A program made the translations under genes and the position numbers. Positions 3,244 through 12,836 of a stretch of 64,000 bases of DNA are shown here, piece after piece. The notes beneath the pieces are model-generated. The model saw nothing but the letters and a program-made list of their open reading frames with translations, was not told where the DNA came from and made no database searches. The stretch spans positions 31,196 through 95,195 of the forward strand of contig JBBUAP010000004.1 of the NCBI GenBank assembly GCA_038058635.1. The letters run 5' to 3'. This DNA is from Patescibacteria group bacterium (GTDB lineage: Bacteria > Patescibacteriota > UBA1384 > 2-12-FULL-50-11). Numbering within the stretch: position 1 is the stretch's first letter; each line of letters begins with the position of its first letter.

Positions 3244-3804
3244 ATGATAAAAACATTACAAAAAAGAGCTTTTACGCTCATCGAACTCTTGGTGGTTATT
3301 GCCATCATCGGTATCTTGGCTTCGCTTATTATCGTCTCGCTGTCAGGCGCACGTGGTAAAGCCCAGGACACACAACGCAAAAACAATGCTCGAAATTTGG
3401 ATAGTGCCCTATCTCAGCACTATGTCGATAAGTCTGGCTATCCATCGGACGCGGGTTCTGCCGCAGCGAATGGCGCAACTGCAGATGGTGGTAGCGCAAC
3501 CTGTGCTGCTCCTTTGGTAGCTAGCCTAGTAGGTGCTTACTTGACATCCGGTACCGCTTGTGACGAGTTGAGTACTAGCGCAACCGCTGTTTCTCGATAT
3601 GCAACATCTGCAAACACGAGTGGCCTAGCAAGTTACTACTCGCTAGGTTGGGGTCTAGCGGCTACAGCTGATTCTACAGTCACGGTTGGCAACGGTGTTT
3701 ATACCACAGCCGATGGATCGCTTAACCTACCACAGGTGGACTTCACAATTGCGAGTCCCTGGGCTGATGCCCAACTAGTCTTCGTTGTTTACGGTCCGCA
3801 GTAG
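3244..3804 (+). CDS. pilA: Type IV (major) pilin, class III signal peptide
   Basis: MIKTLQKRA|FTLIELLVVIAIIGILA: prepilin leader plus the invariant E5 hydrophobic helix; strong RBS; followed by a strong terminator. Confidence 0.8.
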   Translation: MIKTLQKRAFTLIELLVVIAIIGILASLIIVSLSGARGKAQDTQRKNNARNLDSALSQHYVDKSGYPSDAGSAAANGATADGGSATCAAPLVASLVGAYLTSGTACDELSTSATAVSRYATSANTSGLASYYSLGWGLAATADSTVTVGNGVYTTADGSLNLPQVDFTIASPWADAQLVFVVYGPQ

Positions 3805-3883
3805 TCGGCTAAAAGCCTCGTATCCCTCAACGACAAGCGTCTCGGGATAAAAATCTCACTCAAAAGAGAAGAGGATGAAAAAC

Positions 3884-3912
3884 CCGCCCTCCCGGGCGGG
3901 TTTTTCTTGATT
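3884..3912 (+). terminator. Rho-independent terminator after the pilin gene
   Basis: aaaaacccgccc-tccc-gggcgggtttttcttg: a GC hairpin followed by a T-tract. Confidence 0.75.
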
Positions 3913-3941: not shown

Positions 3942-4730
3942 ATGGTGGGGGTGGTGATTGCCTTTATTTTTGGGCTGGCTTACGGCTCGTTTCTGAATGT
4001 CGTTATTTTGCGTTTTGATGATTGGCGGTCGATCGCTAAAGACCGTTCACACTGCCCTAATTGCAAAACTCAACTGTCCTGGTGGGATTTAGTGCCGTTA
4101 TTTAGTTTTGCCTACCTGCAGGGAAAGTGCCGCTACTGCCACAAACCAATTTCTTGGCGGTATCCAATCGTTGAGCTAGCAACCGCCGTTTTGGTGGCAG
4201 CCGGCTATTATTTATTATTCAACAGCCAAGTATTAACGCATTGGCATTCAACGATTGGTCTAGCAGCTCTAGTCGTGGCCATTGGAGCGATGATAACTAT
4301 CTTTGTTCACGATTTGACAGAAATGATGGTGCCGGACTTGATGTCAAACCTACTGCTGGTCGCGACCGTAATTTATGCCCTGGTAGTTCATTACGATCCG
4401 CTCGGCTTGCTCTTTAGCGCTATGGTGGGCTTCTTGCCGATTCTTCTGTTGGTCATACCCAGCCGCGGCACCTTGATGGGGGAGGGGGATATCAAAATCG
4501 CCGGAGCCCTAGCGATACTAGCTGGCTGGCCAAATGCGGTGGCGTTTATGATAATCACCTTCTTACTCGGTGGAATATTTGGTGCAATCGCGCTGGCAAC
4601 CAAGCGCGTCAAGATGAAAACCGCCGTCCCGTTTGGCCCATTTCTAATTTCGGCCGCCATAATAATCTTGTTTTGGGGCGACGCCATCACTAACTGGTAC
4701 CTAGGAACGATAGGATATGGATACTACTAG
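3942..4730 (+). CDS. pilD: Prepilin peptidase (A24 family) PilD
   Basis: 262 aa; the N-terminal Zn-binding CPNC...CRYC motif and multi-TM peptidase A24 core with conserved Asp residues are present. Confidence 0.9.
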   Translation: MVGVVIAFIFGLAYGSFLNVVILRFDDWRSIAKDRSHCPNCKTQLSWWDLVPLFSFAYLQGKCRYCHKPISWRYPIVELATAVLVAAGYYLLFNSQVLTHWHSTIGLAALVVAIGAMITIFVHDLTEMMVPDLMSNLLLVATVIYALVVHYDPLGLLFSAMVGFLPILLLVIPSRGTLMGEGDIKIAGALAILAGWPNAVAFMIITFLLGGIFGAIALATKRVKMKTAVPFGPFLISAAIIILFWGDAITNWYLGTIGYGYY

Positions 4731-4800: not shown

Positions 4801-5592
4801 ATGATTAAATATCAAATTTGGGCATTCAAGAATTCAATTAGAAATTGGAAATTTGGCATTAGAAATTTACAGCCAGCTTTCACTCTTATCGAACTGCTCA
4901 TAGTCATCGCGATTATTGCTATTCTAATTGGTGTGTTGGTTCCGAGTATGAGTCGAGGTTTGTCCGGTAATCGACTGGCTAGCGATGTCGAAGTACTGCG
5001 GGCCAAAATCGAAGAAACTCGGCTACTGGCTGGTTCAACTCAGACAAACGACGAGGACATTTTGGTCGGTTCGGAGGTTCCCGGGACTGATCGCGTTGGC
5101 TATTACGGAATCTTAATTCCGGGTTCTGATATCATTAGAGACCCTCAATACGCTCCTCCATTTTATGCTATCGTTCGTCTTTCTGATCCATTTACTTTCA
5201 GGAGCGATCCCGGATATTGCAGTGGAAATCAAGCATTAACCGACGCTATCAACAATAATATGGGAAGCGGTACTTGCCTGATTGAAAAAGTCGAGCTTAC
5301 CAAGGGAGTGACATATAAAGATTTCTCTACCTATAATATCCATGCCAAACTGATCGCATTCAAAGTCCCTACTCAGCAAGTTTCTGAAATATACTGCCCA
5401 GGACCCTGTGGCGGGAATGGTAATGTTTATACTCTTCTTGAACCACCGCTCTTTCTTCAGCGCGGCGAAAATAACTTGCCAGTCAACCCGCCTAGCAATA
5501 CTTACTTCAAGCTAAAGTACAACGACAAAACCGCCACTATCGAAATCGAGCCCTACACAGGCAAACTAGTAGTAGTATATAGTGATATTTAG
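4801..5592 (+). CDS. Minor pilin / pseudopilin (prepilin-type N-terminus)
   Basis: Leader ...RNLQPA|FTLIELLIVIAIIAILIG carries the class III signal; the rest has no recognisable globular family. Confidence 0.7.
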   Translation: MIKYQIWAFKNSIRNWKFGIRNLQPAFTLIELLIVIAIIAILIGVLVPSMSRGLSGNRLASDVEVLRAKIEETRLLAGSTQTNDEDILVGSEVPGTDRVGYYGILIPGSDIIRDPQYAPPFYAIVRLSDPFTFRSDPGYCSGNQALTDAINNNMGSGTCLIEKVELTKGVTYKDFSTYNIHAKLIAFKVPTQQVSEIYCPGPCGGNGNVYTLLEPPLFLQRGENNLPVNPPSNTYFKLKYNDKTATIEIEPYTGKLVVVYSDI

Positions 5593-6309
5593 ATGCTAAA
5601 GAGGGGCTTCTCACTGCTCGAGACACTGATTGCCACTGGGGTCTTAATCGTGGTGATATTGGGCGTAACCTCACTTTCCAACTCGCTGATTGCCGGTACA
5701 GTGGTCAGCGCAGATAAGACCATCATCAACCGCTGGGCCTCGGAAGGTATCGAGCTGACGCAGAAAATCCGCGACGATACGATACTTGATGATTCCACCT
5801 CGCCAAATTGGTTTGAGCAAGCCATCGCCGAAAACGGCGACGGTTACGGGTGGTTCAAACTAAGCACAACCGATAGTAAAACCTGGAGCATTACGCGGGT
5901 AACTGGTGACTATAACAAAGCAATTGCGACCGACTTCATCAAAGATTCTATCAGCGAAAAACTGACGAGCGATACGACCACTGGCTACCGGCTTATCTGT
6001 GTTGAGGCAGTTGGAGCTAAAGACTCAAGGGCTAATGATGATTTCTTTTGTAATACTACCGATACCCAGAGGGTTCGTGATGGCGTCCGAACCGATCCCA
6101 ACGCTACTAATTGTCAAAACGGGGATCTCTACTGTCAGATGACTTTTGAAAGCGTTAATAAAAACCGCCTAACTTCGTTGGACAAAAAAATAATTCCTTC
6201 TGGAAACGCCGTTAAAATCCGTTCAGTTGTCGTCTGGCAAGACAAAGATCAATTCCGATCAAGCTCCATGGCAACTTTGATTACTAATTGGAAGGGATAT
6301 GAACAGTAG
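5593..6309 (+). CDS. Minor pilin / pseudopilin
   Basis: MLKRG|FSLLETLIATGVLIVVILG is a classical G-1/F+1/E+5 prepilin N-terminus; its start abuts the stop of the previous gene. Confidence 0.7.
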   Translation: MLKRGFSLLETLIATGVLIVVILGVTSLSNSLIAGTVVSADKTIINRWASEGIELTQKIRDDTILDDSTSPNWFEQAIAENGDGYGWFKLSTTDSKTWSITRVTGDYNKAIATDFIKDSISEKLTSDTTTGYRLICVEAVGAKDSRANDDFFCNTTDTQRVRDGVRTDPNATNCQNGDLYCQMTFESVNKNRLTSLDKKIIPSGNAVKIRSVVVWQDKDQFRSSSMATLITNWKGYEQ

Positions 6310-7120
6310 CGGAGCTACTGTTCTTTCTCACCCGAAGTTCGAAATGAGCAATAAAATGACGAATCACGAATCACCAATCACGAATCAGATACCATTTCGT
6401 TTTTCGTTACTTCGAGGCGGAGCCGAGAAGCGAGCGTCAGCGACATACAATATTCGTTATTCAAATTTCCGCGCTTCGCGTGGCTACACTCTGATTGAGA
6501 TGCTGATTTCGGTGACGATATTTTCAGGATTGCTCATCATCGTGCTCGGGACCGTTGCTTCATCGAGTAGCTCATCAGCCAAGGTTAGTCTGCTGCGTGA
6601 TAAAAGCCAAGCTGCCCGATCACTGATTGACCAAATTTCGAACGACCTGCGCTATGTCGACCTAACAGCTAATCTTAATAACGAAGACCAAGGATTTCTA
6701 ATCGATAGATCGGCTCGAACCAGCTTGACCATGGCCTTACTACTGCCGGGTAAAGACAAGGACACCGGCTTGATTAGAAAGGAATATAAAATCGAACAAC
6801 AGTTCAACAATCGCCTGACACTCACATTAAAAGAAGGCCGAGGTTGTAAGCGAGCTGGCTACCTTGCATTTAGTGCCTGTGACCAAGAATCCGAAAAGAC
6901 CGACCTACTGTCGAGCGCCTATACTCTCGGTCAGGAAACTGGGTTTTCGTCAGAGTTGAGCGGTCTGAATGTATTGGAAGCCGAACAACAGACTCCGCCG
7001 ATTTCGCCGTTTGTCTCGATGACATTTTCGCTCAAGCCCGTTGGACTAACCACTAGCTGCAGTTTAGATCCGGGAACTTGCTACAAAGTTTCAACGACAG
7101 TTAATATGGCTTCAAAATGA
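6299..7120 (+). CDS. Minor pilin / pseudopilin (true start uncertain; mature protein begins about 6485 at G|YTLIEM)
   Basis: ...RASRG|YTLIEMLISVTIFSGLLIIVLG prepilin motif; the in-frame ATG codons upstream of it imply a 43-62 aa leader, and that leader overlaps a conserved intergenic repeat element (6407-6447). Confidence 0.6.
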   Translation: MNSSGATVLSHPKFEMSNKMTNHESPITNQIPFRFSLLRGGAEKRASATYNIRYSNFRASRGYTLIEMLISVTIFSGLLIIVLGTVASSSSSSAKVSLLRDKSQAARSLIDQISNDLRYVDLTANLNNEDQGFLIDRSARTSLTMALLLPGKDKDTGLIRKEYKIEQQFNNRLTLTLKEGRGCKRAGYLAFSACDQESEKTDLLSSAYTLGQETGFSSELSGLNVLEAEQQTPPISPFVSMTFSLKPVGLTTSCSLDPGTCYKVSTTVNMASK

Positions 7121-7212
7121 TGAATAAATATCTACGCGGCAGTAGTTTGGTTTTGGTCGTCGTTGTCATGGCGGGCATAATGTCGATCGACTTTAGTGAG
7201 GGAGAGCTATGA
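7117..7212 (+). CDS. Micro-ORF (31 aa) encoding a PilX-N-like signal-anchor peptide; duplicate of the N-terminus of the next gene
   Basis: MMNKYLRGSSLVLVVVVMAGIMSIDFSEGEL; it shares GSSLVLVVVVMAGI with the downstream protein while differing at about 10 synonymous codon positions; ATGA overlaps at both ends. Confidence 0.3.
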   Translation: MMNKYLRGSSLVLVVVVMAGIMSIDFSEGEL

Positions 7213-8144
7213 ACCGGCCATCTAAAATTGGCAGTAGCTTAGTCCTTGTGGTGGTAGTGATGGCCGGGATTATTATTGTCGTCTTTGGTGCCAGCCGTTT
7301 GACGCTGGTGCAATACAACCAAGCCAATCGTGACGAAGATAATGTCTTTGCCCTGTACGCCGCCAAAGCCGGCATCGAAGACGGCTTACTGCGTTACCGC
7401 TATAACCGCAACGCCGAAACTACCGACACCAAAGTTGCTCGCTATAATTTGACCACCGGCACCAGCGCCGGCGAAGTTGCCGAAGGTTCTAAGACTCTTA
7501 ACTTTACTAAACCAACAGACCAGTATTACGACATGAAACTCAACTTTCGCGTTCAATCTCTGGGTGATTTTGACTTTAGCCCCGATCCATTTAGCGTAAC
7601 TCCCAAACCGATTCTTGCCAAGGATGATTTTCTAGAGATTTCTGGCTTCGAGGAAAAATCTAGTCTCTATTATCTAAGAGTAGCATTTAAATTCTATGAA
7701 CCTGTGACTCATGCCGCTTGTTCAAATCCCAATGCCTTAGTCCAAATCCAGCGGGTAGTAGAGGGGATTAGTAACCCCTACGAACAGATAACCGCTAAGC
7801 CGACTAACGATCGTTACGACTCTTTAGGAAGCTCTAATATTGAAGTCAACCTCATTAATCCATCTCGACTGGCAACGACATTTCGTGTTAGACCATATTA
7901 TTGCGATGTTGCTTACGCCATTGCGACAACCACAGATATTAATGGGCGGGGTGTCGACAATGACGGTAAAAAGACAAGTGACGCCGGCTTACTCTTTGGT
8001 GGTCTCAAATCTTACATCACCTCAACCGGCTACTACGGTGAGGCCAAGCGCACCTTGATCGGCGAGATCGACCGCATCTCCGGTCAACTGATCAGTATCT
8101 ACGACTTCAATCTCTATTCCGGCGAAGGCAATATCCGCCCATAG
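7209..8144 (+). CDS. PilX-like minor pilin (type IV pilus assembly protein PilX N-terminal domain)
   Basis: MNRPSKIGSSLVLVVVVMAGIIIVVFG resembles the PilX_N motif (xRGSALVVSLI...); the 311 aa C-terminal part is unassigned. Confidence 0.65.
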   Translation: MNRPSKIGSSLVLVVVVMAGIIIVVFGASRLTLVQYNQANRDEDNVFALYAAKAGIEDGLLRYRYNRNAETTDTKVARYNLTTGTSAGEVAEGSKTLNFTKPTDQYYDMKLNFRVQSLGDFDFSPDPFSVTPKPILAKDDFLEISGFEEKSSLYYLRVAFKFYEPVTHAACSNPNALVQIQRVVEGISNPYEQITAKPTNDRYDSLGSSNIEVNLINPSRLATTFRVRPYYCDVAYAIATTTDINGRGVDNDGKKTSDAGLLFGGLKSYITSTGYYGEAKRTLIGEIDRISGQLISIYDFNLYSGEGNIRP

Positions 8145-11648: not shown

Positions 11649-12836
11649 TCAGGTGATCTCGATCCTCGGACAGGCGAGTCCCTTGATGGCGAGGAGTAGC
11701 GACCAACAGAGCCTTAGGGCGCTCCAACAAAGCCAGAGGGCATCCTTAGCCGCTTGCGCAAGCCAGTTCGGTTTTGGTATTGGGGGTGGTTGACGTACAC
11801 CCATTGTCGCAGGAGTATCTGCCGTTTCTCCCAGCCCTGTAGCAACAGGTACTTCAGCCCGTTCCTCTTTCTGTCGAAAGTCGTCCGACCACCACCAAAG
11901 CACGAGAATGGCAAGGAGTCCAAAGAACACGGTCAAGAGTCCTTGGATAGGTACTGAACTCAAGTAGACGGTCGATGAAATGGCACCGCCGGCGCCAACA
12001 CCGAACAACGCCAGGTCCACTCCGTTGGGGCTCTCTATCTTTTTCTTGCTGTCGAAAAGGCGGAGAAAGCCGGCAAAAAGCATGAATGCTACCGCGCATG
12101 CAATCATGATTCCTAGCCAACCGGCGCCAACCACCATCACGGGGGTGAATGTTACCGAAACCCACCAGATGCCGTAGACCGCGGCGAGCACAAGAAGTAA
12201 TAGTCCGGGGGAGCGTGGAGTGTTGCCCCAGTACTTCATCCTCTTGTGTCTGTTCTTGATTTCAAAGTCCTCCATGGCATCAAGCCAGACCAAGAACGGG
12301 TTGGAACCGTTATAGAGGAAAAACCCTAGTGCGATGACCACATTTACCACTGCGCCAACCCCAACTAGCACCCCACCGAACAGTATGGCGCCGCCGATTG
12401 ACCAAGAGGCTTTGCATAAGGAACGGCCACCCAGATCCCAATCTCTCGACAACGCAGTTGCTTCTGCTATTCGATAAATCAGGCTGTTATGTCTGATTCC
12501 CAGGGCACCATTTTTGTAGCTGATGTCTTGCGAACACACCAGCATAGTCCCTAACATAAAGACACTACTGACCGCAACGATCAGTGCGGCAACTCCCCAC
12601 GAATCAGCCCAATGACTAGCTGGGACTATTGCCACCGCTTGCCATAAAGTGAATAGGTATACGCCGCTGGCAAGAACCAGAAGGGGCTTGCTTAGTGTTT
12701 TGACGAGCTTGGTTCGCGATAGCGCGCCCAAGACGATGGCGATGCCGGCCATGACGCCGAGCCAAAGCAGCGCATCTCCCAAGCTGGGGTAGCGCACGAT
12801 TGCGGATCTCCAAACATTTTCCATCTTCATCTCCAA
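11649..12836 (-). CDS. Hypothetical polytopic membrane protein (395 aa), inserted between rplK and the expected rplA position
   Basis: Long ORF with more than 8 hydrophobic segments and Trp-rich helices; no recognisable family; own terminator. Confidence 0.5.
   Translation of the reverse strand: MEMKMENVWRSAIVRYPSLGDALLWLGVMAGIAIVLGALSRTKLVKTLSKPLLVLASGVYLFTLWQAVAIVPASHWADSWGVAALIVAVSSVFMLGTMLVCSQDISYKNGALGIRHNSLIYRIAEATALSRDWDLGGRSLCKASWSIGGAILFGGVLVGVGAVVNVVIALGFFLYNGSNPFLVWLDAMEDFEIKNRHKRMKYWGNTPRSPGLLLLVLAAVYGIWWVSVTFTPVMVVGAGWLGIMIACAVAFMLFAGFLRLFDSKKKIESPNGVDLALFGVGAGGAISSTVYLSSVPIQGLLTVFFGLLAILVLWWWSDDFRQKEERAEVPVATGLGETADTPATMGVRQPPPIPKPNWLAQAAKDALWLCWSALRLCWSLLLAIKGLACPRIEIT

Follow-up and report, generated by a model that had tools for sequence, protein, structure and literature searches.

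A probable chimeric relic of a minor-pilin gene start, possibly kept as a ribosome relay, in a Patescibacteria pilus operon

The last gene of a minor-pilin operon in a Patescibacteria group bacterium is preceded by a short open reading frame that appears to be the former beginning of that gene. The window analyzed here is a 64,000-nucleotide stretch of DNA in which the ORF list and the sequence place this micro-ORF at 7117..7212 of the + strand, with 31 codons encoding MMNKYLRGSSLVLVVVVMAGIMSIDFSEGEL. There is high confidence, from sequence comparison, that the micro-ORF is the displaced ancestral start, leader and alpha1N helix of the downstream GspK-like gene and thus a duplication relic, because most relatives start the gene at the start position of the micro-ORF. 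The relic is probably chimeric and has probably been kept as a ribosome relay between the preceding gene and the true start; confidence that such a relay has a function is moderate.

The micro-ORF lies in a pilus locus of a Berkelbacteria-like genome. A major pilin gene (3244-3804) is followed by a strong terminator-like hairpin, a prepilin peptidase gene (PilD, 3942-4730) and three N_methyl minor-pilin genes (4801-7120). The hairpin (3877-3906, 13-bp stem with 8 GC pairs), placed between the major pilin and the prepilin peptidase/minor-pilin genes, would be consistent with abundant pilin transcripts and scarce minor-pilin ones. The minor-pilin gene directly upstream of the micro-ORF, mp3 (6299..7120, + strand), has an N_methyl motif (Pfam N_methyl, E = 3e-5), the stop codon TGA at 7118-7120, and a C-terminal tail (CYKVSTT, ending shortly before the stop) that is conserved in ∼45 related loci. 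The GspK/PilX-like minor-pilin gene (7209..8144, + strand, 311 aa) is last in the operon, with RNase H and FtsW genes downstream. An alignment of 38 homologues displays a leader ending in Gly or Ala and a hydrophobic alpha1N without Glu+5, and a Pfam scan places the gene in an operon with the other minor pilins and PilD, a gene order that is kept in related loci. Its product matches neither Pfam PilX_N nor T2SSK at E ≤ 1.

The minor-pilin genes are mosaic. The 38 homologues of the GspK-like gene have conserved ends and a hypervariable center; compared with the related locus L026 (loci are numbered with the prefix L), DNA identity is 32-51% over 7520-8020 of the window vs 82-98% over the N-terminal 70 and last 50 codons. 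This pattern suggests cassette-like exchange of the center or diversifying selection on the exposed region of the tip pilin. The mp1 gene is 92% identical to that of L027 and 61% to that of L026, and mp3 is 86% identical to that of L026 and 68% to that of L027, unlike FtsW and PilD, which are 92-96% identical to the L026/L027 loci. Recombination inside the minor-pilin operon (4801-7120) appears to be frequent. Elsewhere in the window, a 395-aa ORF with a TTG start and many hydrophobic segments (11649-12836, - strand) adjoins ribosomal protein genes.

The micro-ORF and the gene behind it begin alike. The gene starts with MNRPSKIGSSLVLVVVVMAGIIIVVFGASRL, and residues G8 to I21, GSSLVLVVVVMAGI, are the same in both products and in equal register from each ATG. 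Sequence comparison locates this direct repeat at 7138..7179 (copy 1, in the relic) and 7230..7271 (copy 2, in the functional gene, 92 nt 3′ of copy 1), both on the + strand. Fourteen identical residues at an equal offset from the start are not chance and stem from homology to the family N-terminus. The initial annotation had counted about 10 nucleotide differences between the copies, all synonymous; there are 12 in the 42 nt, and none changes an amino acid. Beyond I21 the copies differ non-synonymously, reading IMSIDFSEGEL in the micro-ORF vs IIIVVFGASRL in the gene, with an Asp inside the former helix of the micro-ORF. Two ATGA overlaps described in the same annotation are confirmed: the micro-ORF ATG overlaps the mp3 stop at 7117-7120, and its TGA shares bases with the start codon of the following gene at 7209-7212 (ATGA). 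The latter overlap, of short-ORF stop and main start, also occurs in L026, L030, L060, and L002. A Shine-Dalgarno (SD)-like GAGGGAG (7198..7204, + strand) lies 4 nt 5′ of the true ATG, within relic codons 28-30 (E-G-E). The motif AGTGAGGGA, relic codons 27-29 (S-E-G), is the sole block of the relic tail conserved between the window and L030, whose tails have D25 and the SD codons in common and nothing else. In the window peptide, a basic N-terminus leads into a hydrophobic stretch of ∼16 residues and then into an acidic tail, a by-product of the purine-rich SD.

Relatives place the ancestral start where the micro-ORF begins. Approximately 55 loci were gathered by scans of GTDB genomes and JGI metagenomes and by contig look-ups; a search with the first 90 residues returned three matches, one leading to L060, and exact-sequence look-ups of the micro-ORF peptides returned the three known variants and no further ones. 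In every one of the ∼45 insertion-less loci, the gene start overlaps or abuts the mp3 stop. For example, L032, L027/L028, and L029 have no micro-ORF, and their full-length gene begins at an ATGA overlapping the upstream stop. Around this ancestral start, ∼57 nt are identical in L032 and the window. The relic start has no SD and overlaps the mp3 stop by ATGA; the window relic would probably be translated, because its start context is this same ∼57 nt of L032's working, full-length gene. Both leader types occur among homologues (numbered with the prefix P): the micro-ORF type, M(M/I)NKYLRG or MKKYLRG, in P0009, P0011, P0002, and P0012, the group to which the L032, L027/L028, and L029 loci belong, and the window-gene type, MNRPSKIG or MNRPFKVG, in P0010 and P0018. 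The end of mp3 in the window (7092-7116) and its equivalents in L026, L032, and L027 lack the GGGAGG of distant relatives (NMASK-stop vs NMGGSR-stop), so that the ancestral start in the window cluster would rely solely on the stop-start overlap.

An insertion of 40-88 nt is found in five lineages (window/L001, L026, L030/L031, L060, and L002/L033), and the same arrangement recurs in independent assemblies and samples (L001, L026, L030/L031; ERR3858116, SRR22388066, SRR21686417/8, and an NCBI MAG). A single origin of the insertion is what the comparison points to, because the five carriers share the copy-2 leader type (MNRPSKIG, MNRPFKVG, MNQPSKIG, or MKQLKG, the same minus 6 nt) and have homologous relic tails. 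The carriers form no clade by housekeeping genes, and FtsW and PilD identities give a patchy distribution. FtsW identity to the window is 96% in L026, 95% in L029, 92% in L027, 90% in L003/L038, 80% in L030, and 73% in L002, and close pairs of opposite state exist (window vs L032; L060 vs L061). There is no clean tree for carrier monophyly, and pS values conflict from gene to gene. In L060, the GspK-like gene contains two in-frame stops at 500-600 (NLTT-stop-I-stop-SEV vs NLTTGANSEV in relatives), which may reflect either a pseudogene or a sequencing error in a contig of 2x coverage.

Geometry and homology suggest an old partial tandem duplication that took in the ribosome-binding site and start codon along with the leader and the N-terminal helix. 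The duplicated unit would have spanned ∼86-92 nt, beginning some 14 nt ahead of the ATG and ending at codon 24-26, and its length of 2 mod 3 would have put the upstream copy out of frame. As derived from L032, a 2-mod-3 tandem duplication of a gene that starts at ATGA automatically yields an upstream copy ending in a TGA that overlaps the second ATG. A spacing of 92 nt separates the helix copies in the window and in L030 alike, single-type alleles leave a clean 92-nt gap after codon 15 in a MAFFT alignment, and the homology of the relic to the gene stops near codon 26 (TTT). The duplicated unit probably carried its own ribosome-binding site, because the next 14 nt of the relic, AGTGAGGGAGAGCT, resemble the SD-bearing mp3 end of single-type loci (GGGAGG N6 ATGA). 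Within the window cluster, single-type alleles may descend from the duplicated type by deletion, or the reverse may hold; both directions fit the codon pattern and an mp3 tail that lacks the SD. Taken together, the micro-ORF displays the marks of a duplication relic: homology to the adjacent 5′ end, the ancestral start position, and degradation in some lineages. Other 5′-end remodeling is seen in the family; L053 has an in-frame repeat of GGYAGYAGTTTAA at 896-1045 that gives the leader MKLITNKKGSSLTASRRARSELGSSLILV, and the leaders of L016/P0065 and P0066 are 35-50 residues long. Duplications and indels seem to concentrate at this gene start.

The window relic also appears, with moderate confidence, to be a chimera, with codons 1-16 taken from a single-type allele that was functional until recently and codon 17 onward from the insertion segment. 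Codons 1-16 (7117..7164, + strand) comprise the leader MMNKYLRG and the first half of the helix, and they are like functional single-type alleles. The insertion-specific segment (7165..7273, + strand) comprises relic codons 17-31, the SD, the new start, the MNRPSKIG leader, and the copy-2 helix codons to 22. The window and L026 differ at 9 of 40 positions in 7125-7164, at 2 of 109 in 7165-7273, and at 9 of 43 in 7274-7316; third positions differ at 1 of 35 sites in 7165-7273 vs 17 of 29 in the flanks (Fisher p = 5e-7). This cold segment, from relic codon 17 to copy-2 codon 22, is found solely in the duplicated allele. The segment may have recently entered two diverged single-type backgrounds, or moved between them, with crossovers in the helix-coding repeats, and relic codons 1-16 would have been a working gene start until it arrived; this recombination explanation rests on one short cold segment. 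If codons 1-16 were recently functional, synonymous-only divergence and a low dN/dS against L026 would follow without selection on the peptide. The synonymous-only pattern, which the initial annotation had offered as the product of purifying selection on both peptide copies, accordingly loses its force as proof, since recently functional codons recombined onto an old insertion-specific segment could leave the same pattern. A further candidate, recent intra-locus gene conversion between the copies, was rejected, as nearly all synonymous sites differ. More generally, the case suggests that a synonymous-only duplicate resembling two selected peptides can come from recombination between allele classes.

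The feature that all carriers retain is the reading frame. In 5/5 carrier lineages it stays open between the ATGA of the upstream stop and that of the true start. The start-to-start offsets, 92, 92, 86, 89, and 44 in the window, L026, L030, L060, and L002, are all 2 mod 3, although the carriers have net indels of -6, -3, and -45 nt and are heavily substituted. Because every orthologue is free of stops and net frameshifts, these observations point to selection on the frame, with the peptide not its target. The chance of all five staying open and in frame is ∼0.004, a rough figure (1/3 per indel history multiplied by survival of ∼0.2-0.5) that assumes independent events. In the proposed relay, ribosomes ending mp3 would reinitiate on the relic at the first ATGA, translate 31 codons, stop at the UGA overlapping the true AUG, and reinitiate there with the aid of GAGGGAG (7198-7204); the full-length protein would be made from the second start. 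The trait kept in the five lineages would be the geometry, with the relic ending precisely where the gene begins, and the peptide is probably incidental. Relic variants that run on past the start, or terminate far upstream of it, would then be selected against. Precedents for the elements of this scheme include ATGA overlaps, which gave strict coupling in 13/14 tested gene pairs (PMC6728339), and iraD, which is controlled by an upstream ORF whose stop overlaps the main start (PMC5574718).

Several observations count against the relay. Survival of the ORF is not significant by itself, as ∼48% of simulated relics are open after 29 substitutions. Known carriers comprise five lineages only, of which L060, with its 2x coverage and two in-frame stops in the main gene, may be a dying locus, and the bridge in L002 is only 15 codons. 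The true start has its own SD, and coupling may be dispensable. Moreover, the pN/pS of the window vs L026, taken alone, resembles peptide-level purifying selection. In favor of the relay, searches for other elements of control gave no match to Rfam families over 6900-7500, no promoter or terminator within 7000-7300, and no RNA structure on folding of 7095-7260 (z = 0.12). An SD-masking mRNA structure was rejected on the basis of this z value. A force-sensing leader like that of MifM or SecM was also rejected, given the lack of structure and a peptide of 31 residues that stays in the ribosome tunnel until termination.

The simplest alternative to the relay is a neutral duplication remnant without a role, born open and with too few mutations since, whether translated or not. 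This explanation is unlikely, although the duplication would have created the micro-ORF automatically, open frames survived in 42-74% of simulations, and the peptide decays in L030, L060, and L002. Five length variants that are all 2 mod 3 and have 0 premature stops, after indels of such different sizes, are difficult to reconcile with neutrality; so are the tight stop/start coupling at the junction, universal in the ∼45 insertion-less loci, and the preservation of the relic between the window and L026, where it is 89-98% identical but the intergenic spacers are unalignable. The initial annotation had named absence from close relatives, or stops and frameshifts in orthologues, as signs of such a remnant: the micro-ORF is indeed absent in the closest relatives, but its orthologues contain neither stops nor net frameshifts. 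Hardly credible is an artefact, with an assembly or sequencing error splitting the gene, or a programmed frameshift or bypass that gives an alternative N-terminus. The copies do lie in different frames, 92 nt apart, but the arrangement recurs in independent samples and with independent assemblers, and copies differing at 12/42 nt are no collapsed repeat. Recoding would have to contend with a main frame that is closed by TAG TGA just before 7200, leaving 3 codons, no slippery site, and no RNA structure; a programmed frameshift or bypass was rejected on account of the closed frame and the missing slippery site.

A functional peptide was the reading of the initial annotation, which proposed purifying selection on a free signal anchor that might be a tip or assembly cofactor or a prepilin peptidase substrate decoy. 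In its present form, the hypothesis is of a 31-residue N-in/C-out membrane peptide, an alpha1N helix, under purifying selection in the window/L026 lineage if not more widely and acting as assembly cofactor, tip filler, or prepilin-peptidase substrate or decoy; it is quite improbable. The comparison of close orthologues is its best evidence. The helix is identical to copy 2 at 14/14 residues with synonymous divergence saturated, and between the window and L026 the relic has a pN of 0.041, equal to that of PilD, with a pS of 0.353 (genome pS 0.38-0.55). With 10 differences placed at random, the probability of at least 28/31 identical residues is 0.0026, and 8 of the 9 differences in codons 1-16 fall at third positions (p = 0.001). 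The signal, however, is confined to codons 1-16, which plausibly served as a gene start until recently, and codons 22-31 have already diverged non-synonymously, with the Asp in the helix. The low pN does not extend to L030, against which pN is 0.263 for the relic and 0.093 for the functional copy. The L030 relic peptide, MIKLRPSSLIWGVGIMAGIILTDQSEGKI, is 52% identical to that of the window, with V→G twice, W/G/G in the helix, and Pro at the -1 cleavage position; the L060 peptide, MRTSTFSMSSRLSARAMTEGIIYSPKGLTK, carries R, R, and E where the helix used to be and Met at -1; and in L002 (MRTITFSIYSPGFVK) a 45-nt in-frame deletion has removed the helix. Maximum KD hydrophobicity over 15 residues falls from 2.75 in the window and 2.42 in L026 to 1.99 in L030, where a hydrophobic core is still present, and to 0.28 in L060 and 0.40 in L002. 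Neither a transmembrane segment nor the amino acid sequence is conserved across orthologues, L060 having no hydrophobic segment and L002 no helix. A prepilin peptidase site, which had also been suggested for scrutiny, is compatible with the -1 Gly of the window and L026 but not with the Pro of L030 or the Met of L060. The nearest relatives, L027, L029, and L032, do without the micro-ORF altogether. A peptide of 31 residues is still within the ribosome tunnel at termination, which likewise counts against it. Conservation of a peptide function across orthologues is not supported. There is also little to recommend a narrower version, in which the window/L026 relic would be a working, alpha1N-only "pilin stub" that is cleaved by PilD after Gly8 and joins or regulates the minor-pilin tip complex. 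If it were true, the pristine helix would reflect real purifying selection and not recent recombination.

The ribosome relay, the preferred reading, would offer a natural example of selection that apparently keeps just the frame of a short ORF and the points where it begins and ends, with the peptide eroding stepwise across lineages. If it is confirmed, the last tip minor pilin of Patescibacteria type IV pili would depend strongly on stop-start coupling with its operon partners, which fits the idea that tip-complex subunits are made in fixed ratios. The micro-ORF reveals no new protein function and no new class of system, and is an unusual variant of the coupled short upstream ORF.

Comparison with known systems helps to define this variant. 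The product of the downstream gene resembles the tip minor (pseudo)pilins of the GspK/XcpX/PilX type, with 8% sequence identity to GspK, in a family that is restricted to Patescibacteria metagenomes and has a hypervariable and mosaic middle region. Like small bacterial membrane proteins of <50 aa, the window peptide combines a basic N-terminus, a hydrophobic stretch, and an acidic tail; unlike them, it has no family match, and these features are lost in L060 and L002. Partial tandem duplications that leave 5′ pseudogene fragments are closer in kind, as they too produce a direct repeat of the gene start with a frameshift-truncated upstream copy and a peptide that decays progressively across lineages. 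The relic differs from such fragments in being an intact ORF in every carrier, at an ancestral initiation site predicted to be still active, and in an insertion segment that appears mobile between diverged backgrounds, with the helix-coding repeats as homology arms. The nearest parallels are ATGA termination-reinitiation coupling (PMC6728339) and the iraD leader ORF (PMC5574718), in which the TGA of a short ORF likewise overlaps the main ATG, the SD lies inside the upstream ORF, and the geometry is conserved but the peptide is not. In contrast to these coupled ORFs, the window region has no evident regulator or SD-masking structure and its coupling is inferred here from sequence, its short ORF arose from the duplicated 5′ end of the main gene itself, and a second ATGA joins that ORF to the preceding gene in what would be a two-step relay.
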